From a virus (taxonomy: Duplodnaviria > Heunggongvirae > Uroviricota > Caudoviricetes), in the IMG/VR virus record IMGVR_UViG_2563366802_000014: a DNA stretch of 39,173 nt; one strand, written 5' to 3'. The position numbers were made by a program, and so were the translations under genes. Below are positions 6,122 to 34,005 of the stretch, one piece after another (within the stretch, counting starts at the first letter, position 1; every line of letters starts with the position of its first letter). The notes beneath the pieces were generated by a model. It saw only the letters and a list, made by a program, of their open reading frames with translations, searched no databases and was not told the DNA's origin.

Positions 6122-6212
6122 ATTTACATCGCACTCCTCTTGTGCCATAGTAATCGGGCACTGGCAAAATCCAGTGCCGGGATTGGCGTCCCGGATTACT
6201 AAAAGGCGCATT

Positions 6213-6233
6213 CACCGCGCAAGCGGTTTTTTT
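6213..6233 (+). terminator. Rho-independent terminator after the small antirepressor-domain gene
   Basis: CCGC-GCAA-GCGG hairpin followed by seven T; preceded by a compact multi-hairpin element at 6150-6199. Confidence 0.5.
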
Positions 6234-6390
6234 ATGCGTATAGCACGGCCACATTCGTATTATGGTGGGCTGTGTGGGGGCACCGAAAGGTGCGCCGGGT
6301 CCTTTTAGCCGGTTACGCCAACCCTGCACAGTTCACCACCAACCGATTGGCGTCGGTAGTGGTGATTAACCAGACTAAAAGGTAACCACT

Positions 6391-10910: not shown

Positions 10911-10915
10911 TTAAT

Positions 10916-12718
10916 TTAACCTCTCAAGAAACACGCCACAGCGACATCAAACAGGCTGGAATCCTGTATTGCCTGCTCACTTTCCCTGTTCGCTTCATCC
11001 AGTACTTCACGCGCACTGCGCGATTGTGGATTACCATCATCATCCAGCACGGTGATTATCATGTCAGGTGATTCAAGCAGCGAGTCTTCAGCTATACGCA
11101 GATCAATATCTCCTGCCGGATCTGCCATCATTTTTTGTTCTGTCTGTTGCAATATCTTACCGGGCTCAAAAGGAGCTACTTCGTCTGGCGTCCTGACCTC
11201 TGCTGTTTTATAGAATGAAACAGCCTGAGCATTAAGTTCACTTTCTGCCTGCTGTCGTCGTGCCAGTTCTGCTCGAGCTTCAAAAAACTGACCGCCAGGC
11301 TCATGCGGTGCCAACGCGTTACGGGAAAATTCCAGGCGCTCTTGTGCCTGCCGGATTCGTTGGTCAATATCGCGAAGTCTGACCTGTTTATCTGATCGAG
11401 CACGAGACAAAGCTTTACCGCTACCGGTTGGCTCTTCTGCAAGAATTTGTGCGCGCTGTTCAGTGAGATTTTCAATAATTCGTTGGCTATTAGCGATTTC
11501 AGACTGGTAAACCTGTCTATCGCCACGCGGCAAAAGCTGCGCGGCCTGTTCTTCAAGCAACCGATTTTCTATAGCGCGCGCCGTTACTCCATCATCTACA
11601 GATGACAGAGCCTCATTAACTGCCTGAGACAGCAGACTCTTGCGCCCAGGAATTTCACTGAAAGATGCAGACTCAACAATGCTGGCAACGTCTACAGGTC
11701 TCCCCTGGCTAACATCAGACATAGCTTTTCGCAGAGCCTGAATGTGAGAATTGCGCGAAAGCACGTTGATCGGCACGCCGGGCGCAATATCAATTTCAGC
11801 ATGATGAGCGGCATTCGCCGCCAGTGCAGCATCAACATCAACTGGTGAAAAATTTGGTGCGCTTGTAGACTCGCCGCGAGAGTTCATAAATCTGCCGACA
11901 CCACCAAACGCCACCCCAAGAACAGCATCAATAGCAATTGCCTGTCGATCCAACACATCATACTGGTTAGCCATTTCGCTATAGCCACCATCACGAAGCG
12001 TTTTTGCAGTAAGCCCACGCTGTGCCATACCGAACGCAATATTTGTACCTGCGGCATAGGCAATATCTGGCGTTGCACGCACTGCTGTTGCTGCGGCGCG
12101 TCGCACTGAACTTTCACCCGTCCGCGCAAGCTGGGCCGCCACACCTTCCGCCAGCGCACCACCAGCACGTAACCCGAGGCTCATAGGGATCAGTGTTCCG
12201 GCACCAGCAGTAATACCCTGCACTAATCCCGCTTCCTGCGCCGTCCTGAAATCAACACCCTGTGCTGTCAGCCGTTCAAACTCAGAAAAACCCTGTAGAG
12301 AAGTTACCGCCGCAGCACCTCCGACCGGACCACCGAGCGTTGTACCGACAACAGCCTGCCCTCCCATATCGAACAACCCATAAAGGACCTGCCCGGCGGT
12401 TCCGGTTGTCGCGGCATCAGGCGTCAGCCGCTTAACCTGCTGCTCTGCTAGTTTTCTCTGCTCAGCAATGTATGAAACTGAAGTGTCATTAAGCGAGGTG
12501 TTTTCGTTAACAAACTGAGCAATCGGGGATACGATTTTATCCATCCCTGCCCATAGCAACTGATCTGGCTTTGCCACCAGCCCGGAGTACAAACCAGACA
12601 ATGCCGCTCCTACAGCATTGTCGAAAAAACCAACATTGCTGTTAAAGCCAGCTGGATTTGATGCTGCTTCGTCAAGCTGCTGATTCTGGCTTACTGGATT
12701 AAGGCCAAAGTAACTCAT
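10916..12718 (-). CDS. Internal virion / ejection protein (600 aa)
   Basis: Gly/Ala-rich large ORF translationally coupled to its neighbours; role inferred from position. Confidence 0.5.
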   Translation of the reverse strand: MSYFGLNPVSQNQQLDEAASNPAGFNSNVGFFDNAVGAALSGLYSGLVAKPDQLLWAGMDKIVSPIAQFVNENTSLNDTSVSYIAEQRKLAEQQVKRLTPDAATTGTAGQVLYGLFDMGGQAVVGTTLGGPVGGAAAVTSLQGFSEFERLTAQGVDFRTAQEAGLVQGITAGAGTLIPMSLGLRAGGALAEGVAAQLARTGESSVRRAAATAVRATPDIAYAAGTNIAFGMAQRGLTAKTLRDGGYSEMANQYDVLDRQAIAIDAVLGVAFGGVGRFMNSRGESTSAPNFSPVDVDAALAANAAHHAEIDIAPGVPINVLSRNSHIQALRKAMSDVSQGRPVDVASIVESASFSEIPGRKSLLSQAVNEALSSVDDGVTARAIENRLLEEQAAQLLPRGDRQVYQSEIANSQRIIENLTEQRAQILAEEPTGSGKALSRARSDKQVRLRDIDQRIRQAQERLEFSRNALAPHEPGGQFFEARAELARRQQAESELNAQAVSFYKTAEVRTPDEVAPFEPGKILQQTEQKMMADPAGDIDLRIAEDSLLESPDMIITVLDDDGNPQSRSAREVLDEANRESEQAIQDSSLFDVAVACFLRG

Positions 12719-15228
12719 TGCGGAATATCTCCGGAGAATCTCTGACGTTTCTGTGTCAGATTAAGAACAACGGGAGAACCATCATCTTTCAGCAGATAAC
12801 CAGTACCAAGTTTCACCAGGTACTGACTATCGCCGTAACTTTGCAAACCATACTGACCAGGCGGTGTTTTTATCCCGGAGCCGACAACTTGTTCATTCCA
12901 AGCCTGATTAACCTGCTTATCGAATTGCTCTGCAGACATTCCCCACGGCAAAAGGACATTCCCCATTCCGTTATAGTCATGCACGCCACCTGTAGCTACG
13001 TTAACAGCCTGTTTCCAGACATCATTGTCAATTTCGCCTGATACCACGCCTTTTTTCGCCATCACACCAGCGTAATAGTCCTTTGCGATCTCGTATGCCA
13101 TTGATGCCCCCTGAGCATCACCAGCAAATGCATCCTTCACCATGTCAGAAAACTCAAGGCGAAGATCAGCATCTTTAGGCATCGGAATACCTTTCGCATC
13201 ATCAGTACCTTTACGAGCCGCCGCGCCAGCAAGAATTGTCTGCGCAGCGGTTTCAGGAGACACGGAAACATCCGGATTAAACCAGTTTTTTTCTGCCAAA
13301 ATACCACCAGGCTTGTCCATCAGTATCCCGGCAACGGCAGCAGATGGAGCGTTGGCACTGATCTGCTGTAGTGCTGACATATACACCTGCCCACCACCAG
13401 TGCTCTGCCTGATGGTATCGAGATATGCTGCCTGTTGGGAAACTGGAGCATCACGAAAGAAAACACCGATCTGATTGGCCTCGTCTTTGGAAAAGAACGT
13501 CAGTGGAGTGCCATATGACTTAGCAAGGTCACTGACCTGAGCAGCACGCAAGGCAACGCTCTGTCCAAAGTTATCCTTATTGCTCATGTCGATAGGCTTT
13601 GCCTGTCCGGCGGCAAGAGAGAACTGTACAGGATCAGCCTGTCTCTGCTTTATCACCTGACTTGCAGCCGACACAACGTTGTCATAAAGAGCGGCTCGTG
13701 CCGCATAACCCTCCCCTGTCTCACCAGTATCCGGGCGTAATTGCTCAACATATGCTGTAATGCTGCTTGTCGGCATGTTGCGGAAAGAGCCTATATACTG
13801 TCCGGCGATTTGCGTATTTCTGAACTCGGTATATCGCAGGTTTCCTTCTCTGACTCCATAAGCTGCAATAAAATCAGCCTCACCAGGTGGGTTAGGAAAT
13901 TCAACGCCACGCATATACGCAGCTGTCGCATCGCGAACTTGGCTGTCAATCATCGTTTTATATTCAGCCTGCTGCTGCCGACGCAGTTGATCCGCCTGTC
14001 GCATAAAACTTGCCTGCGCCTCAGGAGATGCCGCATCGAATGCTGCATTACCGGTATAGCGTTTGGTGTTGGTTGGAATTGTTGATAAACCAAGTGCTGC
14101 ACTGACACCAGCAGTTAACTGCTGATCACTGTATGGCTGGCTACCGTTCTCATGATGGATAATGGCTGCACAAAGCGCCTTCAGGGTATCAGGATTAGAT
14201 GCATCGAGAGGCTCATCAGCAGAAACGCCAAGTTGTTCGCACACTGCTTTGATATACGACATAGTGTCATTTTTATCAGTAGGCGGTGCCCAGCGATTAA
14301 TTATCTCGCTGACGGTATCAATACCCTGTCTCTGATACGACATCAGGTTCCGCCCTAATGCACGAATCCCGTGTTCAGGTGTTTCGAATTTAGCAAATCG
14401 ACCATCATCACCGGTCTGGCCTACCCACGGATTGGTTTTGCTGTATTCGAGATTTCCTGGGTTATTGTTGCGTATGCCACGGGCACGCTCGGAAGAATCA
14501 CTATCTGCTACAGCACGGCGAGCTCCAGCAGCAGTATCACTTAACTCGCCATTACTTTGGATGAATGCGGTCGCATTGTTTGCCGACCACTGGGACAATG
14601 CTGCATCAGCAACCTTCTCTTTAAACTCGATTTTCTTGGCCTGGATTTGCTCGTCGCTCCAGCCATGCGCAATGCCGTAATCCTCAATTTGCTGGAAAGT
14701 TTGCTTATTAGCCAATACGTATGCGGCGTTGTCGCCATACAATGCTGCGGCATTTTTACCATTGTTCAGCAGCGTAGCCTGAAACTGGCCTTCTTCGTAG
14801 GCATTTATTTGCCCTATCTCGTGCCGCCCGGCCTGCGTAGTGAACTGAATGCGCTGCTGCTGCGCCTGCTGCATGAAAGCATTACGAGCCTGTTCATCCG
14901 GCAGCGACATAGCCAGTTGCTCGACCTTGGCATCAAACTGCTGCGTATACTCCTGACCTTTTCCAATAGCATTTTTCCCTTTCAGGTTAAGCAAACCTGT
15001 TTCAGGGTTATTCAGCAGATCGCTGCTTATCTGGCTTAAGCTAAGAGAAGCATCCTGAGCCATAGCAACATTCGCACGCTGTTTTGCCTGCGCAATAATA
15101 CCTGCATATTGCTCTGCAACATCGCCAAGTACATCACCGACATTTGGTGTCTGAAACGATGAGAATCCCTGCGTCGAAATCCCTCTGCTCTGAACCTGAC
15201 GGCCCGATGTTGTTGGTACAACTGGCAT
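12715..15228 (-). CDS. Large internal virion / ejection protein (837 aa)
   Basis: Large ORF in the virion gene run; contains the segment GIRNNNPGNLEYSKTNPWVGQ of unknown significance. Confidence 0.5.
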   Translation of the reverse strand: MPVVPTTSGRQVQSRGISTQGFSSFQTPNVGDVLGDVAEQYAGIIAQAKQRANVAMAQDASLSLSQISSDLLNNPETGLLNLKGKNAIGKGQEYTQQFDAKVEQLAMSLPDEQARNAFMQQAQQQRIQFTTQAGRHEIGQINAYEEGQFQATLLNNGKNAAALYGDNAAYVLANKQTFQQIEDYGIAHGWSDEQIQAKKIEFKEKVADAALSQWSANNATAFIQSNGELSDTAAGARRAVADSDSSERARGIRNNNPGNLEYSKTNPWVGQTGDDGRFAKFETPEHGIRALGRNLMSYQRQGIDTVSEIINRWAPPTDKNDTMSYIKAVCEQLGVSADEPLDASNPDTLKALCAAIIHHENGSQPYSDQQLTAGVSAALGLSTIPTNTKRYTGNAAFDAASPEAQASFMRQADQLRRQQQAEYKTMIDSQVRDATAAYMRGVEFPNPPGEADFIAAYGVREGNLRYTEFRNTQIAGQYIGSFRNMPTSSITAYVEQLRPDTGETGEGYAARAALYDNVVSAASQVIKQRQADPVQFSLAAGQAKPIDMSNKDNFGQSVALRAAQVSDLAKSYGTPLTFFSKDEANQIGVFFRDAPVSQQAAYLDTIRQSTGGGQVYMSALQQISANAPSAAVAGILMDKPGGILAEKNWFNPDVSVSPETAAQTILAGAAARKGTDDAKGIPMPKDADLRLEFSDMVKDAFAGDAQGASMAYEIAKDYYAGVMAKKGVVSGEIDNDVWKQAVNVATGGVHDYNGMGNVLLPWGMSAEQFDKQVNQAWNEQVVGSGIKTPPGQYGLQSYGDSQYLVKLGTGYLLKDDGSPVVLNLTQKRQRFSGDIPQ

Positions 15229-15240
15229 CTTATTATCCCC

Positions 15241-15780
15241 TTATCGACCGGTTGGAGTGCCAACAGCAGCAGAAATCGGCGCAGCCTTCTGAGAGAATGG
15301 GCTCCACGTTCCTCCGCCCATCTGGTATGCACCGTATGCTTTTAGTGGTGCCGTTAACAAAGTGCTGGTCATCGATGATTTAGCAGCCGACTGAGCAGCA
15401 GCCCCCTGTGCCTGAGCATTCATTCCCTGAACCTGATACCCATATGCCTCACGCTGAGCATTATTCACTGTCGTTAACGCATCAAGAGTGCCGAACTGAG
15501 CATTATCCGCAAAAACGTCAAGAGCTGTTCCGCTACTTAATTCCGCACCGGTAGCCCCCATAGTGGCCGCCGCAGTGCCTGAGCGTTGACGCATTTCACG
15601 ACGACGCTGATCCGCTTCAATATTCCCACGATTGATTGAATCCTGTGCCTGAGCTTCAGCAATTTCAGCATTCCGATCAGCTATGGCTGACTGGTATTTT
15701 GCCTGCTTGCTCTGGCTGTACATTGACGCGGCTGTGGATGCCACTGTGACGGCAACCAAAGCGATGGCTGGGTTACACAT
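15241..15780 (-). CDS. Internal virion protein, membrane-associated (179 aa)
   Basis: N-terminal hydrophobic segment then Ala/Gln/Gly-rich body; position comparable to small internal core proteins of podoviruses. Confidence 0.45.
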   Translation of the reverse strand: MCNPAIALVAVTVASTAASMYSQSKQAKYQSAIADRNAEIAEAQAQDSINRGNIEADQRRREMRQRSGTAAATMGATGAELSSGTALDVFADNAQFGTLDALTTVNNAQREAYGYQVQGMNAQAQGAAAQSAAKSSMTSTLLTAPLKAYGAYQMGGGTWSPFSQKAAPISAAVGTPTGR

Positions 15781-16244
15781 TATTTTCTCTCCATGTGAAA
15801 TCTGTGGAAATAAAGACCAAGAGCTCCATAAGGCGCGGCTTCTTCAAGCCTGAATCCAAGCCAGTGCAGCCATGCTTTGGCAACATGGTTTCGCTCGTCG
15901 ACGTAGTTTTCCAGGCGCGGATAAACTGCCAGCATCTGCTGCAATACAGGGCGGCAGTGGCGCAGAAATGTCTTCTGATATTTTTCAATACGGCTGGTTC
16001 CTACCAGCCAGGGCGTACCATTGCCACCGATCATTGACGCCGGAGATACACCAAACATGGTTACCAGTTCTCCGTTCGCGAACCCTGACCAGGCCATAGT
16101 CGCAGTGCGAAGACCAACAAGCAGCGCATCTTCGGTAGTCATCAGCGATACCGCATACAGTTCGTCAATATCAGCCTGACGAACATCCGGCAAAATCATC
16201 TGAAGATGCTCTTCGGTGGCGGGAATAATTCGAACATCGATCAT
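15780..16244 (-). CDS. Virion-associated protein (154 aa)
   Basis: ORF coupled between the tail-tube-B-like and internal protein genes; role from position only. Confidence 0.4.
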   Translation of the reverse strand: MIDVRIIPATEEHLQMILPDVRQADIDELYAVSLMTTEDALLVGLRTATMAWSGFANGELVTMFGVSPASMIGGNGTPWLVGTSRIEKYQKTFLRHCRPVLQQMLAVYPRLENYVDERNHVAKAWLHWLGFRLEEAAPYGALGLYFHRFHMERK

Positions 16245-18715
16245 CAGAACCCCCCAACAGTAAGGCGAGGAATAACGGCAAGAACAGACAGCGGCAACGG
16301 GTCAAGCTGACGGATTCTTACACGTCCGTTTTTGCCCCAGTTACTGTCCAGTTTCACTTCTACTTTTCCGGTAGCGTCATCAACAGGATCATCGTAGAAC
16401 TCGAATTCACGCTGTGGATATTCGTACCATTTACCGCCGGGCGTAGTCGCCCAGATGCCGCGACTGGCATTCACAACCAGAGTAACTGACGGGATCGCCT
16501 GTTTTTTGTCCAGCAGCGTTTCCTGTCCGTTAATGTTGATATCCAGTGTTTCGAATTCAGCAGTTATTGGCAGGCCGATGTGCACAACAGCCCCCGGTGA
16601 TTCCAGCGTGACGGCACCTCCGGAAACCACTTTTTGTGGTTCCACGTTCGCATCAGAGAGGATGTTTACGGTCTGGCCTTCAAGATGAGACAAGCCGCCA
16701 AATGTCCGGCGCGCCATCTGCCAGTTCGTGGTGGCCGCATTCCTGAGGGATGGCGGGACGTTCCTGTTGGCACGAACAACTACAGCGGTATTGCTTGTTA
16801 CAGAAATAATGTCGCAACGTAATTCTTTTGACACTTCATCGCCAGTACCAGGATCAGTTACGGTATAAGGGAACTGTAGTTGCGCACCGACATCACTACT
16901 GGTGAAGTACGCACCACCAGAAACACTGATTGTATATTCCGCGCTGTAATCCCATTCACCAGAACCACCAGTGATGGTCATCGTTCTGTCAGACGTATTT
17001 CTTCCATCATAGCTAAGGCCAGAATCAACAAAGAAAGCATCTTCATCGCTGGTAAATAAACGGCTGGACAGTCTCTCGATGTATCTCACTGTTTGCCCGT
17101 TAACGATTCGGTTAACGACGAAATACACCGCATCTTCATTTCCTTCGCTGATACTGCATGTGCTTTCATATTTTCCGGTACTGGACTGTGGTGCCCATGC
17201 AAAAACCTGTTGATCACGCAAATAGGTCATCACCAGTAATTTACCGTCATCACGAATGCAGAAGGCGCTGGAGTAAGGGACAATAGAGAAGCACCAGTCA
17301 ACAATGCTGTGCTTCTGAAAAAGATGATTAGCAAGGATGGTCAGGTCGTTCCCCTGATAGCCGTCAACATCGAATGAGTAGGCCAGATCACGGACAACGC
17401 TGCCTTTCTCCTGGACGAACAGAGCAATATTCGCCACAGCAATTGGTGGGACGTTGCTTGAGCCATTTGATCCCTGAGAGCTGAATGCAAATGATGATGG
17501 GGTTAACACTTTGTTCTGGTCGCCGGTGATGACGTACTCACCTCCGGAAGTCAGTGCCACCAGCGAACCGACATCAATCAGGTGGCGGATCTCATTAACC
17601 TGACGCCCGGCATAGGTGTAGATAATTCTGTCGTCATCCTGCGTAGGATTGCTTTTGCCAAAATCCTTATAATCCCCGGTACGGCTGGCCCAGATAGTCT
17701 GAGGGAACGCAGTCGATGCGGCGAAGTAAAGACGTTGTTGATAATAAACAACAGTGCCAGGATAACCATTAACACTGTTCCAGGCATATTTAGCCCATTT
17801 ATAGCTGGCATTATCCTCGCCAACGACCTGCGAAGGGATATAGGAAATCACCTCGGCAGTTGCAGTAGTGCCATTTACAGCAGTTATACGGGCAATGCCA
17901 AAACCACTGTGCAGATACTCCCACTCAATGCCAGTATCATCATCACCGGAGCCGCCCCAGCCATCCCATGATGTGCCTTCTGTATGCGAAGGGCGCAAAG
18001 TGCCTGTTTTGCCTGCTGTAACGGCGCGATAGTAGTTACTGTCTGCACGGCGAATATCGCCAATCGACGTACTCTTACTGGTTTCCCATACCGGTACTGA
18101 ATCCACTGCTGGCTGTTCCAGATAGAACAATTTGCCTACCTGCTCCGCGCCAAAAATAGAGGCGCTTGCCGTTAACGTAATTGTCCCGGTGCTGGCGCTG
18201 GCATAAACCGTCACTGACTCGTCAATATTGATATCTTCAAATGGCCCGTTCTTCGTTACCACATCAACCAGTTGCCAGTTGTCATGCGCATAGCGGCGCA
18301 ACTCTTTCGGCGGGTATGCCGGATGAACCAGCGTAAGCACGTCTGCGCTTTGCGTGAATTTAATTCTGAACAGATCGGCTTCAGTATATGGCGTGGCAAT
18401 TTCATAAATAACATTGCTGCTGTTCAGCACCAACGCACCATCTTTGATAACGCGCATGTACTGGTGTCCGAACTCCAGAGCATAGGTCTGAACCGTCGAG
18501 AACTGGAACGGGATCAGGCGGCATTTCCGATTTGGGTATTTGGCGGCACCAACAAAACGCGTACCAGGTCGATTCTCAACGCCGCCATACTGCCGCACGA
18601 TAAAGTTATCGCACTTGCGCAATGCCACCTGGTACTTCGCCATGTCGATACGACCATACAACGATGGTCCAATCTCACCACCGGCAAAGCTGGGCTGGAT
18701 CCAACTGATAGCCAT
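16244..18715 (-). CDS. Tail tubular protein B-like (nozzle) protein (823 aa)
   Basis: Size and position after a roughly 200-aa adaptor-like gene, as in T7-type gp11/gp12 pairs; weak N-terminal resemblance; function inferred. Confidence 0.5.
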   Translation of the reverse strand: MAISWIQPSFAGGEIGPSLYGRIDMAKYQVALRKCDNFIVRQYGGVENRPGTRFVGAAKYPNRKCRLIPFQFSTVQTYALEFGHQYMRVIKDGALVLNSSNVIYEIATPYTEADLFRIKFTQSADVLTLVHPAYPPKELRRYAHDNWQLVDVVTKNGPFEDINIDESVTVYASASTGTITLTASASIFGAEQVGKLFYLEQPAVDSVPVWETSKSTSIGDIRRADSNYYRAVTAGKTGTLRPSHTEGTSWDGWGGSGDDDTGIEWEYLHSGFGIARITAVNGTTATAEVISYIPSQVVGEDNASYKWAKYAWNSVNGYPGTVVYYQQRLYFAASTAFPQTIWASRTGDYKDFGKSNPTQDDDRIIYTYAGRQVNEIRHLIDVGSLVALTSGGEYVITGDQNKVLTPSSFAFSSQGSNGSSNVPPIAVANIALFVQEKGSVVRDLAYSFDVDGYQGNDLTILANHLFQKHSIVDWCFSIVPYSSAFCIRDDGKLLVMTYLRDQQVFAWAPQSSTGKYESTCSISEGNEDAVYFVVNRIVNGQTVRYIERLSSRLFTSDEDAFFVDSGLSYDGRNTSDRTMTITGGSGEWDYSAEYTISVSGGAYFTSSDVGAQLQFPYTVTDPGTGDEVSKELRCDIISVTSNTAVVVRANRNVPPSLRNAATTNWQMARRTFGGLSHLEGQTVNILSDANVEPQKVVSGGAVTLESPGAVVHIGLPITAEFETLDININGQETLLDKKQAIPSVTLVVNASRGIWATTPGGKWYEYPQREFEFYDDPVDDATGKVEVKLDSNWGKNGRVRIRQLDPLPLSVLAVIPRLTVGGF

Positions 18716-22227: not shown

Positions 22228-22524
22228 TCACTCCTGTTCACTGGCCTCTTTGGCCATCTTCAAATACTGTTCAGGGCAATGCGCCATAACGCGCTGAAAC
22301 AGTTCCAGCGCCAGATTGCGTTGCCCCTCATTAAATGCCATTGCCATAGCGTCCATCGGTGAGATAGCGGAAAACACACGGCCTTTCTCCAGCACCGACC
22401 AGACAACGCGACGCCCCTGTTCGCTGCTCATGACAAAGCGAATGTCATCAATTTCACGCTGCGCCATGTCACGTTGCTTACGGGCGTTTTCTTCTTTCAG
22501 TTGATCGTCTTCGTAATCTGTCAT
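22228..22524 (-). CDS. Hypothetical head-module protein (98 aa)
   Basis: ORF from track between portal and scaffold genes, translationally coupled. Confidence 0.5.
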   Translation of the reverse strand: MTDYEDDQLKEENARKQRDMAQREIDDIRFVMSSEQGRRVVWSVLEKGRVFSAISPMDAMAMAFNEGQRNLALELFQRVMAHCPEQYLKMAKEASEQE

Positions 22525-24200
22525 TGTGATTGCCCACCCTGACCACTAACTGCATTCGCCATAGCTGACAAAACACTCGGATCCGAAGTTTTAGCTTCGC
22601 TTAGCGTCTTGGCACCCTGTGCCGCCGCCATCCCCATCGCCATCATTTGTTGCTGCTGTTGCTGCTGTGCCCGTTGCTGGCGAGCATGCTCAACCTGTTC
22701 CTGCGGAACAATGACGGTTGGAGACACTCCGGACATATCAGCGAATGCATCGATCGCCTGATCAACGTTGAGTTTGTCGAGAGCTTCTGGTTTCGCTTGC
22801 GCAAGTTGACCAATGAAGTTAACCGTGGACGCCAGACTGGACAGGCCGATAGACTTCTGCGCCTGAGCCATGACGGAAATGTATTCGACCTTCAGGGGCA
22901 TGCCTTCCATCGCGTCAGGCGGTGGCGGCAGCATGTTTTTACGCACCATCATAGAGAAAGCGCGGTCAATGAGAGGATTAAGACATTCGTCGTTCAGACG
23001 CTCCAGAACCGGCCCCAACATCAGAAGTTTTTCTTCTTTCATTTCGATCACCGCTTCAACAGGCATCGAGCGGGTATTGATGTTCTGCAACATCATGAAC
23101 AGATCGACAAAGTAGGCGCTGTTAATGATTTGGCGAGTGTCCTGAATGTCTGCCACCAGATCTGCTGTACTGGGGTTAACCAGATAAGCAGGCCTGAAAC
23201 CATCCTGACCAGTAATCTGATCGATATACGTGATGTCGCCAGGAAGAAGGGAGGCGCGCTGATTCTTGAGGGAAGTCGGAGCAACCATCGGCGGATTGGT
23301 GGCTTTATCAATCAACTGCGACTTGCGCTTCTGGAGAAGCTGCAATGCCTTAACAGGTCCAAGCGCCAGCATACCCGGGCATGATGATCCATAAACATCT
23401 TCGCCGTTAACTTCCCAGCGCGGAGCCATAATTGGAAACTCATCGAATCCGGACTCACGCAACAACTTGTCGTTATCGCCGCCAACCTCGTAATAAACCG
23501 ATTTGAATGGCTTGTTCTTGCTATCCAGCTTCGATGTATCGCGGTCAATGTTCGGGTAAACCGAATGCATCACTTCGATCCACTTCTCGTAGGTGCCGCT
23601 TTCCCACATGCTTTTTACGGATTCGCTGACGTTATTTAGCCCGAACTCCTGAACAAGCTGACGAACAGTCATAGAGAACTTGCGAAAACAGGTGTCAACA
23701 CTGCCACGAGGTGAGTTAGCCAGGTAGTAACTGCCTATCGGGAATGGCATTGTGCGAATGATGTCCTCGTCATCCTCCAGCACTGCCATTGCACCAGTGC
23801 TGTATGTGCCGAGGCTTCCGTATAACTGCGGAAGAGACTGGTAGAGATTCGACTTATTGAACATATCGTTCATGCGGTTCTGCACCGCCTCAAGCCACAA
23901 CTTAACAGGGCCATAATCCATCATTTCAGGATCTGGCGTAGCCAGGCGAAACCACGGACGCGCGGGGCTTGTGATGCCTGACATCATGCCGCTGGCGAGA
24001 GTGCGCGCCGCCATAGTCCCGGTCGAATCAATAATGCGTGTATTGCGTCGATCGTTACGGTTGACCTCTGAAGTCAGAAAGCGGGAACCACGCGGGTTGA
24101 TGTAATCACTCAACTCGCGCCAGTGCGGCTCGAACGACTGACGCTCGCTTTCAAGTTGTGCGAACTGTTTGTTCAATCGCTCTTTAGTTGTTTCCGCCAT
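22521..24200 (-). CDS. Portal protein
   Basis: 559-aa ORF downstream of the terminase genes; Gln-rich C-terminal tail; function by position and size. Confidence 0.7.
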   Translation of the reverse strand: MAETTKERLNKQFAQLESERQSFEPHWRELSDYINPRGSRFLTSEVNRNDRRNTRIIDSTGTMAARTLASGMMSGITSPARPWFRLATPDPEMMDYGPVKLWLEAVQNRMNDMFNKSNLYQSLPQLYGSLGTYSTGAMAVLEDDEDIIRTMPFPIGSYYLANSPRGSVDTCFRKFSMTVRQLVQEFGLNNVSESVKSMWESGTYEKWIEVMHSVYPNIDRDTSKLDSKNKPFKSVYYEVGGDNDKLLRESGFDEFPIMAPRWEVNGEDVYGSSCPGMLALGPVKALQLLQKRKSQLIDKATNPPMVAPTSLKNQRASLLPGDITYIDQITGQDGFRPAYLVNPSTADLVADIQDTRQIINSAYFVDLFMMLQNINTRSMPVEAVIEMKEEKLLMLGPVLERLNDECLNPLIDRAFSMMVRKNMLPPPPDAMEGMPLKVEYISVMAQAQKSIGLSSLASTVNFIGQLAQAKPEALDKLNVDQAIDAFADMSGVSPTVIVPQEQVEHARQQRAQQQQQQQMMAMGMAAAQGAKTLSEAKTSDPSVLSAMANAVSGQGGQSQ

Positions 24201-24214
24201 TTCAATGACTCCGG

Positions 24215-24421
24215 TTACTGACCAAGCAGCGTTTTACCGCTGGTATTAGCGGTTGATGTGTCGCCCTGAGAACCAGTAAGCAGCGTAGAACTACGACCAG
24301 CAGCAGCGCGACGGCGACGTGTTTCTTCGTCGCGGGCATCAACAACGGCGGCATCCTGCTCCTGTGGTGCTGCCTGAACTTCTGGTGTTGCAGGCACTGA
24401 TGGTGAGCTACCCATGCACAT
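24215..24421 (-). CDS. Small hypothetical protein (68 aa)
   Basis: Ala/Arg/Glu-rich ORF with RBS GGAG 8 nt upstream, ending 15 nt before the portal start. Confidence 0.35.
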   Translation of the reverse strand: MCMGSSPSVPATPEVQAAPQEQDAAVVDARDEETRRRRAAAGRSSTLLTGSQGDTSTANTSGKTLLGQ

Positions 24422-24511
24422 ATCAATGACTCCGTACGCAATTAAATTATTACCAATTTAACCACATATGATTTATTTATCGTAGGTAGTTGACATTTAA
24501 CGCACGAATTA

Positions 24512-24526
24512 TTACCTTTAAGGTAA
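24512..24526. promoter_or_regulatory. Operator-like palindrome TTACCtttaaGGTAA next to a TTGACA -35-like hexamer
   Basis: Perfect copy; TTGACA at 24490-24495 on the plus strand. Confidence 0.55.
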
Positions 24527-24848
24527 CCAAAGAGCTCATTCCGGTTACTAACCTGACTGGCTTGTCGTTAAATTGAACAGGTGGAGTGAGCTTTTATTTT
24601 GAGCAGTACGGCGTATGGCACATGCGACGATAGCGGTCTGGATACGTTTAAGGGGCACCCTCCCTTGCTCGGGCAAACGAACCAGGTAGCCGGAATGTGC
24701 AAGTCGAGCGGTTTTATTCCGCGCACGGGGATACACCATCCCGGCGATTCGGTGTGACGCCTCGGAAGAGGCGAGGGTACAACGATGAGAGCATTTATGG
24801 AGCCGCGACAAAGTGTGGCGCCTTAACAGGCTAAGTGCTCTCAGCGTT

Positions 24849-24925
24849 GTGGCATTAGCTCAGTCGGACAGAGCAACCGCCTTCTAAGCGGTTGGTCGCA
24901 GGTTCGAATCCTGCATGCCACGCCA
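24849..24925 (+). tRNA. tRNA-Arg (anticodon UCU)
   Basis: Hand-folded cloverleaf: 7-bp acceptor stem GTGGCAT/ATGCCAC, D-arm GCTC..GAGC, anticodon stem ACCGC/GCGGT with loop CTTCTAA (anticodon TCT), T-arm GCAGG-TTCGAAT-CCTGC, discriminator G and encoded CCA. Confidence 0.85.
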
Positions 24926-24968
24926 GAATCACGCCTAAGGACCGTGATGCCAGAAGTTCCAGGTGCTT

Positions 24969-25010
24969 GGCGGTGATGGTTTCCCTTGAAGGACTATCAC
25001 CGCCCTTTTT
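24969..25010 (+). terminator. Rho-independent terminator downstream of the tRNA
   Basis: 9-bp stem GGCGGTGAT / ATCACCGCC followed by CTTTTT; the loop is long (18 nt). Confidence 0.5.
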
Positions 25011-25123
25011 ACAGCAGGACGCCATTGCGATGACTTCATGCTGTAAACCCGTACAGCCACGGAAGGCATAACTCATTGCTTCCAGTTCGCCCGGTTCGCC
25101 GGGCATTTTTTTAAGGTGAGATT

Positions 25124-25480
25124 ATGAACGACCAGCAAATCGAAAAAGAAATCGTTGAGAAAGGCAAAACCGCTCCGCGAGTTACGCCTCAATATATCGA
25201 AAGCATCATTCTTGAAGAGCATTTCTTTACTGCTTATGACGGCATTCGTGCTGCCAATATGGGCGTTGGCGATTCATGGACAGCGCATAAATCTACAGAC
25301 CTCCTGACTTTCTGCGTACTGGTGCTGAAGAATGGCTTCACCGTCACCGGAGAAAGCGCCTGTGCAAGCACGGAAAACTTTGATGCAGAAATTGGTCGGA
25401 AGATTGCCCGGCAGAATGCTGTAAACAAAATCTGGATGCTCGAAGGTTACTTGCTGAAGCAGAAGCTAAGCGAGCAATAA
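25124..25480 (+). CDS. Hypothetical phage protein (118 aa), oriented against the flanking packaging genes
   Basis: ORF from track with RBS AAGGTGAG; tentatively resembles a small phage protein family of the Gp49 type, from memory only. Confidence 0.55.
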   Translation: MNDQQIEKEIVEKGKTAPRVTPQYIESIILEEHFFTAYDGIRAANMGVGDSWTAHKSTDLLTFCVLVLKNGFTVTGESACASTENFDAEIGRKIARQNAVNKIWMLEGYLLKQKLSEQ

Positions 25481-25484
25481 CACC

Positions 25485-25496
25485 GTGACATGTCAC
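25485..25496. repeat. 12-bp perfect palindrome GTGACATGTCAC (copy 2 of 3)
   Basis: Begins 5 nt after the TAA stop of the 25124..25480 gene and 4 nt before the terminator. Confidence 0.8.
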
Positions 25497-25500
25497 AAAC

Positions 25501-25528
25501 AGCCAGCCTATGAGCTGGCTTTGTTTTA
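25501..25528 (+). terminator. Rho-independent terminator
   Basis: Stem AGCCAGC / GCTGGCT with 6-nt loop followed by TTGTTTTA. Confidence 0.7.
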
Positions 25529-25570
25529 TCCTCACCAGAGGATATCAACGACATTATCCCCACCAGCGGA

Positions 25571-27046
25571 TTAAGCATAAGGGTCATAATCCGTTATGGC
25601 CCTTCCCTGCTGGCTTTGCTGTCCTGGTATATTTATGCGTTTCGAGACCGGGAAAGCAAACGTCAGCAATAGCGCATCGCCTTTCCCCGGCGAACGCCCA
25701 AGTCGCTCCTTGATATCTTCCTTCGGTTCGATAACGATTTTACCGTCCACGCGAACTTTGTACTCTGCCGTCGACAGGTCGTCCGCTGTTTCCTGGTCAT
25801 CCAGCATGCCGCCGAGCCTCAGCCATGTCTTGCATGAGTTGAACATCTCCCCACGCTTGTTGAGCATCTGCGGGTCAGTAGACGCGCCACCGAACGGAAC
25901 AAGTTGCCATGTACGACCCCAGCCGTCACCGATTGACTTCAGACCAGTTCCGTAACCGAAGTCGATGAACACTGCGTCAGCCTGGTACTGGTCTTCAAAG
26001 TCAGCGATACGCTTCGCCATAATCAGATCGTCAGTGGTCTTGTTGCCGGTCCACAGCACCTTACTATGCAGCCCCTGCCGCAGGTATATCACAGCATCAT
26101 CAACACCGGAGTATGCCGGGTCAACGCCGATTATCACCGGAGCATGTGCCACCTGCGCAGCGGTTATCACCCGTTTCATTGCCTCGTCAGTAAGTCCGGT
26201 AGGGATAAACTGCAATTCAGATGCATCAGGGAATATGCCGCGCACACGGATTTTAACGAAGTCACTGTCTTCCCCGTAGTCATCAACCCATTTCTGCAAC
26301 TGCTGTTTGTTGGTGCCTTCCACCGTCCGGCTGTCAATCTGCGCAGTTTTCCAGCGGTGTTTATACTTGCGGAAACATTCACGGAATCGCCCGGTATTAC
26401 GCGTCGGGTTTCCGAACGCCACCCAAATAATCTCAGTGTCTTCGTCCGTAAGCGCACCCTCGGCAACTTCCCACACCAGATCCGCAATGTTCGACGCTTC
26501 ATCGAATACCACGATAATGCGTTTGCGCTCGTTGTGTAGTCCTGCGAATGCCTCAGTGTTGTGCTCAGACCAGGGGATTGCGTCAGCTCGCCACCGCTTG
26601 TCGTGTCCAGGATCATTGCTGTACATCGCGGTAGCGGTGCAGGTGAACCAGTCTTTCGTGATAGCAAGGTTCGACCACTTGATAATTTCAGGCCAGGTCT
26701 TCGTTCGTAGTTGGTTGTCGGTGTTGGCGGTCACCACGACCTTACAATCCTCGCAAGTGGACATGCCCCAGTTGATCAGCATTGAGATGAATGCGGATTT
26801 ACCAATACCGTGACCAGAAGCACGTGCCAGCATAAGCGGCTGATATCGCGTCTCTGGATTCTGCAGGTGATCACGTATCTCTCGGAACGCATCGGCCTGC
26901 CACTGACGTGGACCGGTGGCATGTGCCAGTTCAGTACCCTCTTCCCCCCACGGGAACGCATAGAGGGCATAGCCAAGCGGATCGTGAGTGAACCCTGCAA
27001 TATCCTCGATTAACTGCTCTTCAGGAGATAACGCTGTATCTGTCAC
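25571..27046 (-). CDS. Terminase large subunit
   Basis: 491 aa; N-terminal ATPase-like region with a candidate Walker A (GHGIGKS); overlaps the small subunit gene end; precedes portal. Confidence 0.85.
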   Translation of the reverse strand: MTDTALSPEEQLIEDIAGFTHDPLGYALYAFPWGEEGTELAHATGPRQWQADAFREIRDHLQNPETRYQPLMLARASGHGIGKSAFISMLINWGMSTCEDCKVVVTANTDNQLRTKTWPEIIKWSNLAITKDWFTCTATAMYSNDPGHDKRWRADAIPWSEHNTEAFAGLHNERKRIIVVFDEASNIADLVWEVAEGALTDEDTEIIWVAFGNPTRNTGRFRECFRKYKHRWKTAQIDSRTVEGTNKQQLQKWVDDYGEDSDFVKIRVRGIFPDASELQFIPTGLTDEAMKRVITAAQVAHAPVIIGVDPAYSGVDDAVIYLRQGLHSKVLWTGNKTTDDLIMAKRIADFEDQYQADAVFIDFGYGTGLKSIGDGWGRTWQLVPFGGASTDPQMLNKRGEMFNSCKTWLRLGGMLDDQETADDLSTAEYKVRVDGKIVIEPKEDIKERLGRSPGKGDALLLTFAFPVSKRINIPGQQSQQGRAITDYDPYA

Positions 27047-27639
27047 TGATTGCCATCCTGACGTTCTTTCAGTCTCTTCCTGGCTGCCGCTATGCGATCA
27101 GCAATTGTCACATTCACATTAACATCCAGGCGTTCTTTGAATGCGTTGACGTCGACGTGCTTACCAATCAGTTCGAGGTTCTTCACCTTGTCAGGCCATT
27201 TAATTTTTTTGAGGATTGTCTCTATCGAATCCTCGTTCATGTTCATGATGGTCGATGACAGATCAAAGCCGCTAAGCGTAGTGCGCCAGATTTTCGGCCA
27301 CTCTCGGATTGGCTTAAGGCTCCCATCGTCGTTGAGGATGTCGATCACGTCCATCTGGTCGATCTCCACCAGACGCATGAGAACGTAATCAGCACTGACG
27401 CGCATTCGTTTGTTGCGCTCCTCCATCAGCTCGGCAATCCGTTTTTGAATGCGTTCATCGCGCATCATGACACTGGCTTTAACTGCTGCTGTATTTGGGG
27501 AGAATCCTGCGTTAATCGCTGCCTGAGTCTGGTTTTCAGGCGTTTTGATGTATGACTGGCAATAAGCCTCCTGCATTGCTGTTAGTGGCTTAAATTGCGT
27601 TGATTTGCGTTTATAGGTTTTAGGTTCAGCAGGCATCAT
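27043..27639 (-). CDS. Terminase small subunit
   Basis: Resembles small terminase proteins and is translationally coupled to the large subunit; start reassigned to ATG 27639 (MMPAEPKTYKRK) rather than the track start 27717. Confidence 0.75.
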   Translation of the reverse strand: MMPAEPKTYKRKSTQFKPLTAMQEAYCQSYIKTPENQTQAAINAGFSPNTAAVKASVMMRDERIQKRIAELMEERNKRMRVSADYVLMRLVEIDQMDVIDILNDDGSLKPIREWPKIWRTTLSGFDLSSTIMNMNEDSIETILKKIKWPDKVKNLELIGKHVDVNAFKERLDVNVNVTIADRIAAARKRLKERQDGNQ

Positions 27640-27671
27640 AACCACCGTGGTAATAGTTACCGTTGTGGTAA
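27639..27671. promoter_or_regulatory. Two adjacent operator-like sites at the terminase small subunit start
   Basis: TaACCaccgtGGTAA (27639-27653, one mismatch) and perfect TTACCgttgtGGTAA (27657-27671), overlapping the start codon and 5' leader. Confidence 0.55.
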
Positions 27672-27681
27672 TAGTACCATG

Positions 27682-27708
27682 CAAAATAAAGCCGCCATAG
27701 TTGGCGGC
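27682..27708 (-). terminator. Rho-independent terminator between the 113-aa gene and the packaging genes
   Basis: Minus-strand hairpin GCCGCC-aactat-GGCGGC followed by TTTATTTTG. Confidence 0.65.
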
Positions 27709-27749
27709 AGTATTCAAAACACATCAAATTCATCATGCATAATCTACTC

Positions 27750-33286: not shown

Positions 33287-33871
33287 ATGAAAAGTATCCA
33301 GGACGTCCGCAGGCAAAATCTCAACGACTTGATCGACCGTGAATTCAATGGTGTTCAGACGCGGATGGCAGAAAAACTTGGAACTCAGGCAAATCTGGTA
33401 AACCGCTGGGCTCTTGGCAAGAAGGTTATCGGCGACCAGGTTGCGCGAAAAATTGAAGCTGCCGCCAATAAACCCCGTAACTGGCTTGATATCGATCGCT
33501 CGCTTTCTCAGGAAGGTTTTCAGCCTGTCGGCCCAAGCGATATTGGTCAGCTGGCAGCTCACAACCTGGAACGCTGGATGAGTGAAAGCCGCGACCTTTC
33601 AACTCAGGGAAAACTTCACCGCGCATCCGGCGTCGCCCAGGTGACAATAAGCCGCCTGTTAAACAATGAGGTCAGCGTTTCCATTTCCACCCTGGAGAAT
33701 GTTGCATCTGCATTCGGGCGTCACGGATATGAACTACTGATTCATCCGCATGACCCTGCAACTATCAACTATGACCGCTCGCGCTACGCATTGTTACCTG
33801 AAACAGAGAAGGCAAAGATCGAAAGTTACATTGAATTTGTCATCAACCAGAACGAAAAAAACAAACAATAA
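33287..33871 (+). CDS. Prophage repressor candidate, tandem-HTH protein without recognisable autocleavage domain
   Basis: N-terminal HTH (QTRMAEKLGTQANLVNRWALGKK) and a second HTH-like segment (ASGVAQVTISRLLNNEVSVSISTLENVASAFG); no Ala-Gly / Ser-Lys peptidase signature seen; divergent from Cro-like gene. Confidence 0.6.
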   Translation: MKSIQDVRRQNLNDLIDREFNGVQTRMAEKLGTQANLVNRWALGKKVIGDQVARKIEAAANKPRNWLDIDRSLSQEGFQPVGPSDIGQLAAHNLERWMSESRDLSTQGKLHRASGVAQVTISRLLNNEVSVSISTLENVASAFGRHGYELLIHPHDPATINYDRSRYALLPETEKAKIESYIEFVINQNEKNKQ

Positions 33872-33928: not shown

Positions 33929-34005
33929 TTACCTAACGGGTAATTTTTTTAACTCATATCTATTGACATCAAACCAGATACGCATAATTATTACCTCAAC
34001 GGTAA
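33929..34005 (+). promoter_or_regulatory. Early-left promoter (PL-like) flanked by two perfect operator-like sites
   Basis: TTACCtaacgGGTAA (33929-33943), TTGACA at 33963-33968, AT-rich -10 region around 33983-33991, TTACCtcaacGGTAA (33991-34005). Confidence 0.6.

Follow-up and report, generated by a model that had tools for sequence, protein, structure and literature searches.

The plus-strand unit described here is best explained as an early, repressor-controlled RNA cassette assembled from exchangeable modules. The stretch ahead of its tRNA-Arg(UCU), which an earlier note on this DNA had treated as a noncoding leader, contains a predicted folded, pseudoknotted RNA of five helices. On comparative grounds, this core is a widespread structured RNA family without a model in Rfam 15. 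The window (the whole 39,173-nucleotide stretch of DNA that was analysed) is a prophage of the phiV10/epsilon15-like type, and the core recurs in about one third of complete Escherichia coli genomes.

The unit lies between the large terminase gene, with which it is convergent, and a 68-aa gene that adjoins the portal gene (Table 1). It had been placed between terminase and portal; this is correct on the terminase side, but the 68-aa gene intervenes before the portal. The order runs from TTGACA and an operator palindrome through a noncoding stretch, tRNA-Arg(UCU), two terminators and a 118-aa PF13876 gene to a third terminator, and each feature first recognized in 24422-25530 is present at or near its original position. 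The 118-aa gene does end in a palindrome and a terminator, as proposed, but the single terminator described ahead of it is actually two, T1 and T2. An oppositely oriented insert at this place had been called unusual. Instead, the same arrangement is the norm in epsilon15-like phages of E. coli, Salmonella, Klebsiella and Enterobacter, and when related prophages were compared at the terminase-portal junction the core recurred at the same place in 51 epsilon15-like loci. Because the operator recurs where the small terminase gene begins (27639-27671) as well as at 24446-24526, the sequence suggests that the terminase and portal genes form separate operons, not a single interrupted one. The cassette has all the traits of a phage moron: its own promoter and terminators, a place between two conserved genes (here terminase and portal) and a variable cargo gene. 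Unlike a moron, it has a promoter apparently under the phage's own repressor and about 600 nt of conserved structured RNA ahead of the cargo gene.

Table 1 Features of the unit and its neighbours (positions in the window)
Feature	Position	Strand	Basis or remark
Portal gene	22521-24200	-	
68-aa gene	24215-24421	-	precedes portal
Divergent control region, 68-aa gene / RNA unit	24425-24528		alignment A1
Putative -35 hexamer TTGACA	24490-24495	+	sequence; kept in 6/6 aligned epsilon15-like sequences
Putative operator, perfect palindrome TTACCTTTAAGGTAA	24512-24526		overlaps -10/+1 region of putative promoter
Variable 5' leader	24527-24605	+	alignment A1, folding
Conserved RNA core, ~170 nt	24606-24777	+	RNAalifold, pair counts
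Core helix P1	24609-24617 / 24621-24629	+	
Core helix P2	24634-24640 / 24683-24692	+	
Invariant 19-mer GGUAGCCGGAAUGUGCAAG in core	24685-24703	+	
Core helix P3	24703-24705 / 24743-24745	+	
Core helix P4	24728-24731 / 24739-24742	+	
Core pseudoknot	24734-24737 / 24751-24754	+	
Core helix P5	24760-24764 / 24772-24776	+	
P6 hairpin, hypervariable apex	24778-24851	+	16 pairs, 6 with both-side changes
tRNA-Arg(UCU), encoded CCA	24849-24925	+	ARAGORN; Rfam RF00005, 73.3 bits (cut-off 29)
Conserved hairpin AUCACG-CCUAAGGAC-CGUGAU, slot to T1	24928-24948	+	epsilon15-like loci
Terminator T1, 14-bp stem (-22 kcal/mol) then CUUUUUAC	24969-25011 (called at 24969-25004)	+	
Conserved module M2, T1-T2 spacer	25012-25088	+	precedes cargo gene, whichever gene it is
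Terminator T2, GCCCGGUUCGCCGGGC then AUUUUUUU	25089-25112 (called at 25089-25104)	+	abuts ribosome-binding site of cargo gene
Cargo gene, 118 aa, Phage_gp49_66 (PF13876)	25124-25480	+	Pfam 116.9 bits (cut-off 27), E = 5.8e-34
Palindrome GTGACATGTCAC (25485-25496) and terminator T3 (25501-25520)	25485-25529	+	gap between cargo gene and convergent large terminase
Large terminase gene	25571-27046	-	convergent with unit

The control region is almost invariant in epsilon15-like phages of four genera (alignment A1). Two of the window's four copies of ATTATTACC, where 0.2 are expected, lie in it, at 24446 and 24508. The pattern TTACC-N5-GGTAA occurs at 14 sites in the window, ten of them perfect, where 0.5 are expected (0/100 shuffles), and a second TTGACA with the palindrome in the same layout is found at 33961-34005. 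Based on these sites and this second copy, the palindrome appears to be a genuine operator belonging to a scattered regulon. A repressor site is annotated at the operator's position in the epsilon15 record. The reading of 24490-24526 as promoter and operator therefore holds, with hexamer and palindrome present and the operator overrepresented, although the best -10 element for the hexamer is a weak TACCTT (24513-24518, spacing 17 nt) and a consensus promoter scan of the window made no call for this promoter.

The variable 5' leader that follows differs in length among relatives, with about 30 nt in SPN1S at the short end and about 210 nt at the long end. In the core behind it, 99.5% of cells pair in a 20-sequence alignment, versus 30-45% in slid controls, and both-side changes occur at 16 pairs, versus 5.9 ± 1.6 after shuffling (0/500). 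Among 107 distinct cores about 97.5% of cells are paired, with many compensatory changes; the pseudoknot pair 24734-24754 is always complementary, as C-G in 81 cores and as A-U in the other 26, and invariant unpaired nucleotides are numerous. The core is read from the plus strand because near-invariant U-G pairs (24614-24624 in 106/107 cores, 24637-24689 in 103/107) would become C-A mismatches on the other strand. Folding z-scores, which are alike on both strands (-3.5 and -3.8), were dropped as a strand criterion in favour of these pairs. Searches with nhmmer found a single core copy per locus; one genome match (L021, Oscillospiraceae) was set aside as a 19-mer similarity arising by chance only. 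Covariance models of Rfam 15 were run on the window at gathering thresholds and on the locus at E ≤ 10: the tRNA was the one match at this locus, and no family (riboswitches, T-box, ribozymes, RNase P, tmRNA, ROOL, GOLLD, C4 and STnc100 among them) matched 24530-24848. The P7 and cdtI cores likewise gave no match at E ≤ 1.

The earlier proposal of a separate noncoding RNA or processed precursor in the leader was thus right, and understated, since it is part of a widespread structured RNA family. That it codes for a small protein in homologues is very improbable indeed. Overlapping open reading frames of 45 and 52 aa (plus strand) and 87 aa (minus strand) are present and a few phage records annotate hypothetical proteins there, but PGAP annotates no CDS at the leader, the conservation follows a pattern of base-paired helices, G-U pairs included, and variation in the length of the hairpin apex breaks any reading frame. 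The leader is accordingly noncoding, as first described, and strongly structured and conserved. A test based on the first downstream open reading frame was left out because spurious antisense frames in structured RNA confounded it.

Immediately 3' of the core stands the P6 hairpin, whose three outermost base pairs include the first three bases of the tRNA. A boxA or NusB/E box in its 3' strand (UGCUCUUU) was considered and rejected: the segment is base-paired, and one relative (L036) keeps the pairing with a different sequence. The slot 3' of P6 is closed by GUUGUGG/CCACAAC and holds tRNA-Arg(UCU) here and, in most relatives, a variable domain (D2) that is tRNA-like in places. The claim of a D2 closing helix rests on reading the sequences, because an automatic search that admitted G-U pairs returned some spurious partners. 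The tRNA proposed from hand folding is confirmed by ARAGORN, which calls tRNA-Arg(tct), and by the Rfam tRNA model (Table 1); RefSeq annotates tRNA-Arg in near-identical prophages. Read from the sequence, the predicted tRNA has A20 in the D-loop AGUCGGACAGA and a 3' end ...AUGCCAC-G-CCA. A canonical tRNA occupies the slot in only 35 of 157 relatives (tRNA-Arg(UCU) in 33/157), which makes it dispensable to the module; tRNA-Met(CAU) stands 5' of the core in six loci, and 116/157 loci have no canonical tRNA. On this distribution the tRNA is an optional passenger of the module.

These counts bear on the simplest account of the leader, namely that it is a mere long 5' tRNA precursor and that the tRNA serves only the rare AGA codon in late genes. 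The tRNA is genuine and AGA is enriched in the window: it makes up 11% of Arg codons, and its rate of 6.9 per 1000 codons is roughly threefold that of E. coli on average. However, no AGA occurs in the major capsid, portal and large terminase genes. The codon is concentrated in a tailspike-like frame (3159-5621, 13 codons), in four large frames at 8436-18715 (26 codons) and in some early genes, and its rate is 5.4 per 1000 in the late block versus 8.5 elsewhere. The argument from codon use for a role in late protein synthesis is thus only partly supported. The leader, moreover, is conserved far beyond a spacer, covaries, contains an invariant 19-mer and persists where the canonical tRNA is missing. 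The precursor account is largely refuted and we consider it most improbable.

Downstream of the slot, T2 abuts the ribosome-binding site of the cargo gene, so expression from the upstream promoter needs read-through. Within 700 nt 3' of the core, an intrinsic terminator on the same strand is present in 42/42 epsilon15-like and 57/72 lambdoid loci, and 31 of the 42 have two or more. Between core and T1 lies a tRNA or D2 domain, 77 to about 200 nt in length; two loci (L027 and L030) carry xis and int beyond T1. A leader peptide in M2 (ORF MTSCCKP...) was rejected, as indels shift the frame among relatives. The cargo gene also matches PHROG 322 (unknown function), is named 'Gp49 family protein' by PGAP, and is found at this locus in only 14 of the 51 epsilon15-like loci.

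Outside those loci the core occurs in two other settings. In 85 lambdoid loci it directly follows the repressor gene, behind a PL-like promoter, and in P1 and P7 it is part of the repressor-controlled ban operon. It was found in 1819 of 5426 complete E. coli genomes, often in several copies. Its carriers include P1, P7, phiV10, cdtI, Stx2c-converting phages and 2H10 and, in the data examined, are Enterobacteriaceae phages only. In every annotated example it lies in the 5' leader of same-strand protein genes, which share no common theme (ban, yfdP/yfdQ, xis and int, variable cargo genes). In cdtI the core lies about 48 nt behind a strong promoter (11/12 consensus matches) that looks like PL/OL, since the operator overlapping it has three more copies between cI and cro; the gap from cro to the following gene is just 31 nt. 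The records of cdtI, 1720a-02 and Stx2a_1447 annotate no N gene behind PL. The P7 record annotates C1 operators ahead of the operon, and here promoter and core are 2.4 kb apart; a promoter-proximal terminator (L038 1758-1780) precedes the core, and there is none between core and ban. Phage epsilon15 is viable despite a deletion of the core, the tRNA and half of T1. The element is absent from the yfdO-yfdP gap of the E. coli K-12 prophage CPS-53.

The core is unannotated in all records examined, the vB_EcoP_ZX5 paper makes no statement on the region of the unit, and no mention of the 19-mer was found in the literature searched. Two published RNAs were considered as its identity and rejected: svsR, a 77-nt RNA at the cI 3' end, is a different element (PMC12803456), and the Pas sRNAs described near capsid and tail genes are different RNAs (bioRxiv 10.64898/2026.05.13.724894).

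We favour, with a probability of only about 0.35, the reading that the core is a cis-acting leader that helps RNA polymerase pass downstream terminators, a functional analogue (not a homologue) of HK022 put. Prophage derepression would switch the unit's promoter on. RNase P would cut 5' of G24849, freeing an RNA of about 320 nt, core plus P6, and the tRNA, which may aid the reading of the phage's AGA-rich genes. The core, attached to or bound on the transcribing polymerase, would drive read-through of the downstream intrinsic terminators, and the repressor-controlled promoter would be the sole source of expression for this unit's cargo gene and for the early-left genes in lambdoid phages that lack N. 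In lambda and HK022 the PL-proximal position that the core takes behind the repressor gene is held by nutL, with N, or by putL. The distance between core and T1 fits processive action, not a classical riboswitch platform. Casjens and colleagues have noted that N-less relatives of phage 2H10 may use a put-like RNA (PMC12315714).

Several observations count against cis antitermination. With one core per locus, the lambdoid phages have no second copy for the rightward (PR) operon. The P7 core lies behind a terminator and has none between it and ban, and epsilon15 does without core, tRNA and half of T1. In epsilon15-like phages, a polymerase that ignores terminators would either have to halt at T3, which looks ordinary, or transcribe into the large terminase gene in antisense. 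The sequence of T1 is partly conserved along with the module, which would suit a terminator that forms the 3' end of the RNA itself, and nhmmer found no sequence similarity between the core and the put RNAs in the HK022 genome.

Nearly as likely, and thus still a tentative reading, is that the core acts in trans as a stable noncoding RNA and belongs, as one unit, to an array of stable phage RNAs. Here tRNA-processing enzymes would release the core (RNase P at the adjacent tRNA or tRNA-like unit), T1 would be the 3' end of the transcript, the core would bind a host factor or serve a tRNA-related function, and downstream genes would be reached by leaky read-through only. In every setting a tRNA or variable domain flanks the core on one side: the tRNA is 3' in the 35 loci and tRNA-Met(CAU) 5' in the six mentioned above, and the other inspected loci have a D2 with an acceptor-like closing stem and, in some, a T-arm. 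The P7 ban leader is an array in which P6-like hairpins recur between tRNAs and tRNA-like units, among them a tRNA-Sec-like unit (46.6 bits) and an STnc100-like sRNA (43 bits). T1 moves together with the module, the position in P1 and P7 is unfit for antitermination, and the pseudoknot and the many invariant unpaired nucleotides suggest a specific partner. ROOL and GOLLD, which are large phage RNAs, and the stable RNAs of phage T4 likewise adjoin tRNA genes. On the other hand, no partner or target is known, the core is a constant leader before variable cargo genes, in all annotated examples on their strand, and an efficient T1 in lambdoid phages would cut off xis, int and the early-left genes.

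The compact fold, with its pseudoknot and invariant 19-mer, would also suit a sensor, riboswitch-like or tRNA-sensing, in which a small ligand or host RNA sets terminator read-through or translation. Loop contacts are possible between CAAG and the conserved YCCUUG (P2 apex) and between AUGUGC and GCACAU (P1 top); GUUGUG can pair with ACAAC (P6 5' strand) or with CCACAAC (D2 3' strand), a possible switch; and terminators lie downstream. We nevertheless regard a sensor as unlikely. Unrelated tRNA or D2 sequence fills the 77 to about 200 nt between core and T1, no helix links the core's two ends to an expression platform, the genes that follow have nothing in common (ban, yfdP/yfdQ, xis and int, variable cargo), and even at E ≤ 10 Rfam yields no riboswitch or T-box match. 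Neither an aptamer coupled to an expression platform nor a coherent gene set, the usual marks of a riboswitch, was found. There is a similarly small chance that the core is a processing element, a self-cleaving ribozyme or an RNase-directing platform that parts tRNA or tRNA-like units from mRNA. It always lies at the boundary between such a unit and an mRNA, its invariant junction nucleotides and pseudoknot resemble catalytic RNAs, and the epsilon15 record carries a predicted RNase III site in the region of the unit; yet no ribozyme family in Rfam matches, and about 170 nt is large for a self-cleaver.

We also compared the core with RNA systems already described. Like putL and putR of HK022, it would be the first structured RNA from the early-left promoter of a lambdoid phage without an annotated N behind; intrinsic terminators follow it, its carriers share no phage protein, and it could act at a distance. 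The put RNAs are about 70 nt with two stem-loops, lie in the early transcripts from both PL and PR ahead of terminators that are read through, and act in cis on RNA polymerase via the beta' zinc-binding domain. The core, in contrast, is of about 170 nt with five helices and a pseudoknot, is single per phage, on the PL side only with none at PR, occurs also in epsilon15-like podoviruses and the P1 ban operon, and has no sequence similarity (best nhmmer E = 1.8 over 16 nt, whole HK022 genome). With the T4 species 1 and 2 RNAs, ROOL and GOLLD it shares being phage-borne, beside tRNA genes, highly structured and probably released by tRNA-processing enzymes. It differs in its much smaller size, in giving no Rfam match to ROOL or GOLLD, and in being confined to Enterobacteriaceae phages (in the data examined) and always placed in a leader ahead of protein genes. 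The P1 C4 and P4 CI antisense RNAs (RF01695) have regulatory roles in temperate phages and are cut out of a leader transcript by RNase P. The core, too, is a temperate-phage RNA in a leader with proposed RNase P maturation, but it fails the C4 model and no complementary target sites were found. Elsewhere in the window, at 6258-6343, Rfam identifies a true C4 RNA. The likeness to STnc100/PasD concerns the slot and not the core: the STnc100-like unit of P7 (cut-off 47 bits) lies in a P6-flanked slot, which suggests that slots carry sRNAs as well as tRNAs, and no STnc100 match was found in the window.

One in three complete E. coli genomes, and model phages too, thus carry a structured RNA without annotation or an Rfam model. 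P1 and phiV10-type lysogens are inducible and genetically tractable, and so the core is easy to test. How early-left genes are expressed in N-less lambdoid phages is an open point, raised again in 2025 (PMC12315714); an antiterminator would explain it, and would be a second RNA able to reprogram RNA polymerase. It is possible, if doubtful, that the core is a second independent RNA class, after HK022 put, that modifies RNA polymerase for processive antitermination, stands in for N at the early-left promoter of many lambdoid prophages (Stx2c- and some Stx2a-converting phages among them) and drives cassettes of tRNA, tRNA-like and accessory genes in epsilon15-like and P1-like phages. A trans-acting RNA would instead be an abundant early phage product aimed at some host target. 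Under either reading, tRNA-Arg, tRNA-like domains or sRNA-like units occupy the slot bounded by P6; this suggests that small RNAs are exchanged between phages as cassettes, a point relevant to phage counter-defence and to Stx prophage regulation.

A blastn search with 24422-24850 matched other epsilon15-like phages of Salmonella, Klebsiella and Enterobacter and, unexpectedly, the 3′ 240 nt of the query also matched unannotated lambdoid-phage DNA at ~82% identity (cdtI, mEp460, 2H10, Ayreon, 1720a-02, and Stx2c- and Stx2a-converting phages among them). The earlier note had suggested that the leader before the tRNA may be a noncoding RNA, and this is borne out for 24606-24777, a member of a conserved, covarying, structured RNA family. 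This single-copy part, hereafter the core, comprises helices P1-P5 and a pseudoknot and is 144-176 nt long in relatives; only one locus, on an IMG/VR contig, has two full-length cores. Its invariant 19-mer GGTAGCCGGAATGTGCAAG (24685-24703) pulls out 23 true loci from one-genome-per-species contigs, in Kosakonia, Citrobacter, Klebsiella, Enterobacter, Kluyvera, Buttiauxella, Erwinia, Phytobacter and others, and a second motif occurs in at least 120 viral contigs.

For 20 sequences RNAalifold gave a structure of 44 pairs, with compensatory changes seen in 15, and the pseudoknot CACC/GGUG was then added to it. Under the combined structure 99.5% of cells are paired, against just 30-45% in control structures slid by 1-3 columns, and both sides change in 16 pairs, compared with 5.9 ± 1.6 in shuffles (0/500). 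Among 107 distinct cores, positions 24734 and 24754 of the pseudoknot pair in every one, as C-G (81) or A-U (26); the commonest states are G-C (70) and A-U (36) at 24613-24625, C-G (58) and U-A (48) at 24639-24684, and C-G (60) and G-C (36) at 24763-24773. Because U-G pairs are near-invariant, the folded species is the plus-strand RNA. Two segments of 24685-24703 have complements elsewhere in the core: AUGUGC, which is invariant and single-stranded, matches GCACAU, likewise invariant, at the P1 top (24618-24623), and CAAG matches YCCUUG, conserved in the apex of P2 (24655-24665); UUCCCUUG is present in the T1 loop too. Judged by complementarity, these segments may form tertiary contacts or a switch, and they lie beyond the covariation test because neither varies.

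The surrounding stretch (24200-25600) shares 97% identity with Escherichia phage phiV10 and other Uetakevirus (epsilon15-like) phages, and 98-99% with prophages of many E. coli chromosomes. Every element described in the earlier note was found in the window, and its interpretation was supported in part. ARAGORN places the tRNA-Arg(UCU) at 24849-24925, where it has an Rfam score of 73.3 bits and a RefSeq annotation in near-identical prophages, and the small gene belongs to PF13876 (Phage_gp49_66), a family of unknown function. The proposed promoter and operator were both read in the sequence, as TTGACA at 24490-24495 and the palindrome TTACCTTTAAGGTAA at 24512-24526; the -10 hexamer of this putative promoter is weak, and a consensus promoter scan did not call it. 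Plus-strand terminators are present as claimed, but two rather than one precede the 118-aa gene. The order 3′ of the tRNA slot, in the window and the inspected epsilon15-like loci, is a conserved hairpin, terminator T1, a conserved spacer (M2), terminator T2 and a cargo gene; of the 51 epsilon15-like loci, just 14 have gp49_66 as the cargo. M2 contains a short ORF (25034-25069, MTSCCKPVQPRKA) with a possible ribosome-binding site; in several relatives it is in frame with the cargo gene across T2, and in others indels shift the frame.

Features of the unit and its surroundings in the window
Feature	Position	Strand	Remark
Portal	22521-24200	-	PF12236
68-aa gp3-like gene	24215-24421	-	
Unit under study (promoter to T3)	between 68-aa gene and large terminase	+	
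P6 hairpin	24778-24851	+	hypervariable apex, conserved 3′ end GUUGUGG
Hairpin	24928-24948	+	conserved, slot side of T1
T1	24969-25004	+	terminator, before 118-aa gene
T2	25089-25104	+	terminator, abuts ribosome-binding site of cargo gene
T3	25501-25520	+	terminator, 3′ of 118-aa gene
Large terminase	25571-27046	-	
Small terminase	27043-27717	-	
TTACC-N5-GGTAA sites (examples)	5726, 6107, 7153, 24512, 27657, 30824, 30886, 33217, 33929, 33991		

The core occurs in three settings, epsilon15-like, lambdoid and P1-like, all of them early repressor-controlled operons. The epsilon15-like loci (51) are arranged as in the window. The lambdoid setting takes in 85 loci and most of those classed as "other", with a repressor gene followed by the core on the same strand. 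In cdtI, cI is ended by a terminator and followed by a promoter that matches the consensus at 11 of 12 positions; this promoter looks like PL/OL, since the operator over it (ATGTACCCTTGAGATACATA) recurs in three more copies between cI and cro. The core begins ~48 nt 3′ of the promoter and is followed by D2 (a variable, in places tRNA-like domain), T1, a long-stem module and early-left genes, which in lambdoid phages are yfdP/yfdQ/yfdR-like or, in L027 and L030, xis and int. Phage vB_SmeS_BUCT708, labelled Stenotrophomonas, carries an enterobacterial-type core (L040, 2942-3090) beside a CI/Cro switch, and its host label may need review. The P1-like phage-plasmids with a core are P7, P1, D6, SJ46 and RCS47. 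In P7, whose record annotates the operon's C1 operators, the core is flanked by tRNA-Ile/Met(CAU) and ban; it comes last in the 2.4-kb leader of the ban operon, an array of P6-like hairpins (L038, 1600-4270), directly before ban. Interleaved with the hairpins are tRNA-Asn, tRNA-Thr, a tRNA-Sec-like unit (46.6 bits) and an STnc100-like unit (43 bits), both below the cut-off of 47, and a cdtI-type D2. Among complete E. coli genomes, 1819 of 5426 carry the core, in up to four copies, and 546 of the places are plasmid-borne.

A second helix starts with GUUGUGG at the 3′ end of P6 and is closed by (CA)CCACAAC, 60-260 nt further downstream. The slot so enclosed holds D2, which ends with a T-arm-like hairpin in some loci (L022 and L014, for example), or a real tRNA-Arg in the window, phiV10, SPN1S and one Klebsiella phage; the acceptor stem of this tRNA, GUGGCAU/AUGCCAC, shares GUGG with P6. 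Across 157 full-length cores, tRNA-Arg(UCU) fills the slot in 33 and a tRNA-Ile-like unit in 2, a tRNA-Met(CAU) stands directly 5′ of the core in 6, and 116 have no canonical tRNA. The tRNA is an optional passenger of the module. The P6 apex of SPN1S and 1720a-02 contains two T-arm-like hairpins, CTGGTTCAATTCCAG and GTCCGTTCGATTCGGAC, and P6 is therefore a second insertion slot. AGA accounts for 6.9 per 1000 codons in the window (11% of Arg codons), about three times the E. coli average. AGA codons are concentrated in the tailspike-like ORF (13), in four large ORFs at 8436-18715 (26) and in some early genes; the capsid, portal and large terminase genes have none. The idea that the tRNA supports late protein synthesis is upheld only in part, but a supplementary role in AGA decoding is plausible.

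The palindrome TTACC-N5-GGTAA has 14 sites in the window (5494-34005) against 0.5 expected. One (6107) is just 5′ of an isrK/C4 immunity module, others (27639-27671) are at the start of the small terminase gene, and a pair (33929-34005) adjoins another TTGACA. The motif thus looks like the operator of a dispersed repressor regulon, much as C1 operators are scattered through P1. Its presence at the small terminase start and before the gp3/portal genes points to separate operons there, each under repressor control. A 194-aa transcriptional regulator (33287-33871, PHROG 8) adjoins the pair and is likely the repressor that binds the motif. The isrK (6158-6233, 77.9 bits) and C4 antisense RNA (6258-6343, 77.7 bits) lie side by side and, with operator 6107, form a P1-type immI module, here in an epsilon15-like prophage.

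Our leading reading, at a probability of roughly 0.35, is that the core is a cis-acting processive antitermination element. It holds the place behind PL whose usual occupants are nutL/N (lambda) or putL (HK022), and no N gene is annotated behind the core-bearing PL-like promoter in the lambdoid records checked. Terminators lie downstream in 42 of 42 epsilon15-like and 57 of 72 lambdoid loci, and T2 blocks the cargo gene unless read through, both of which argue for this reading. So does the independent suggestion of a put-like RNA for N-less relatives of 2H10 by Casjens and colleagues (PMC12315714). With a tRNA or D2 inserted between core and T1, a classical riboswitch platform is excluded but action at a distance is not; we consider it improbable that the core is a sensor RNA, and likewise that it is a processing ribozyme or platform. 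Against cis antitermination, the PR operon is without a copy of the core, the P1/P7 core is far from the promoter with no terminator before ban, and a terminator-proof polymerase would enter the large terminase gene antisense. Phage epsilon15 is, moreover, viable without the core: a deletion between two TTCCCTTGATGCT copies, in the P2 apex and the T1 loop, took core, tRNA and half of T1, leaving only the first 48 nt of the core (L004, 2811-2990). T1 also accompanies the module, as an end belonging to the RNA itself would. Nearly as likely as cis antitermination, though still tentative, is a stable trans-acting RNA freed by tRNA processing. Under either reading, the unit promoter would come on upon prophage derepression, and RNase P would cleave just ahead of G24849, a site with the favoured U at position -1, parting a ~320-nt core-plus-P6 RNA from the tRNA.

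Of known systems, HK022 put is nearest to the core in position and context, and a homology test against it was negative. The T4 stable RNAs, ROOL and GOLLD sit beside phage tRNAs, as the core does, and none was matched by it in an Rfam search. We rejected C4, to which the core has no match and whose true copy is elsewhere in the window, and svsR and Pas, which are different RNAs. No Rfam 15 family matches the core of the window, P7 or cdtI, the NCBI PGAP pipeline annotates nothing over it, and no annotated feature underlies the core match in the 40 records listed. Public records already annotate the tRNA, the gp49_66 gene and the layout of the cassette. Within the reach of these tools, no description was found of the RNA family, of its pseudoknotted fold, of the three settings or of the cassette slot. 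The main yield is thus an abundant, unannotated structured phage RNA whose function is open to direct test.
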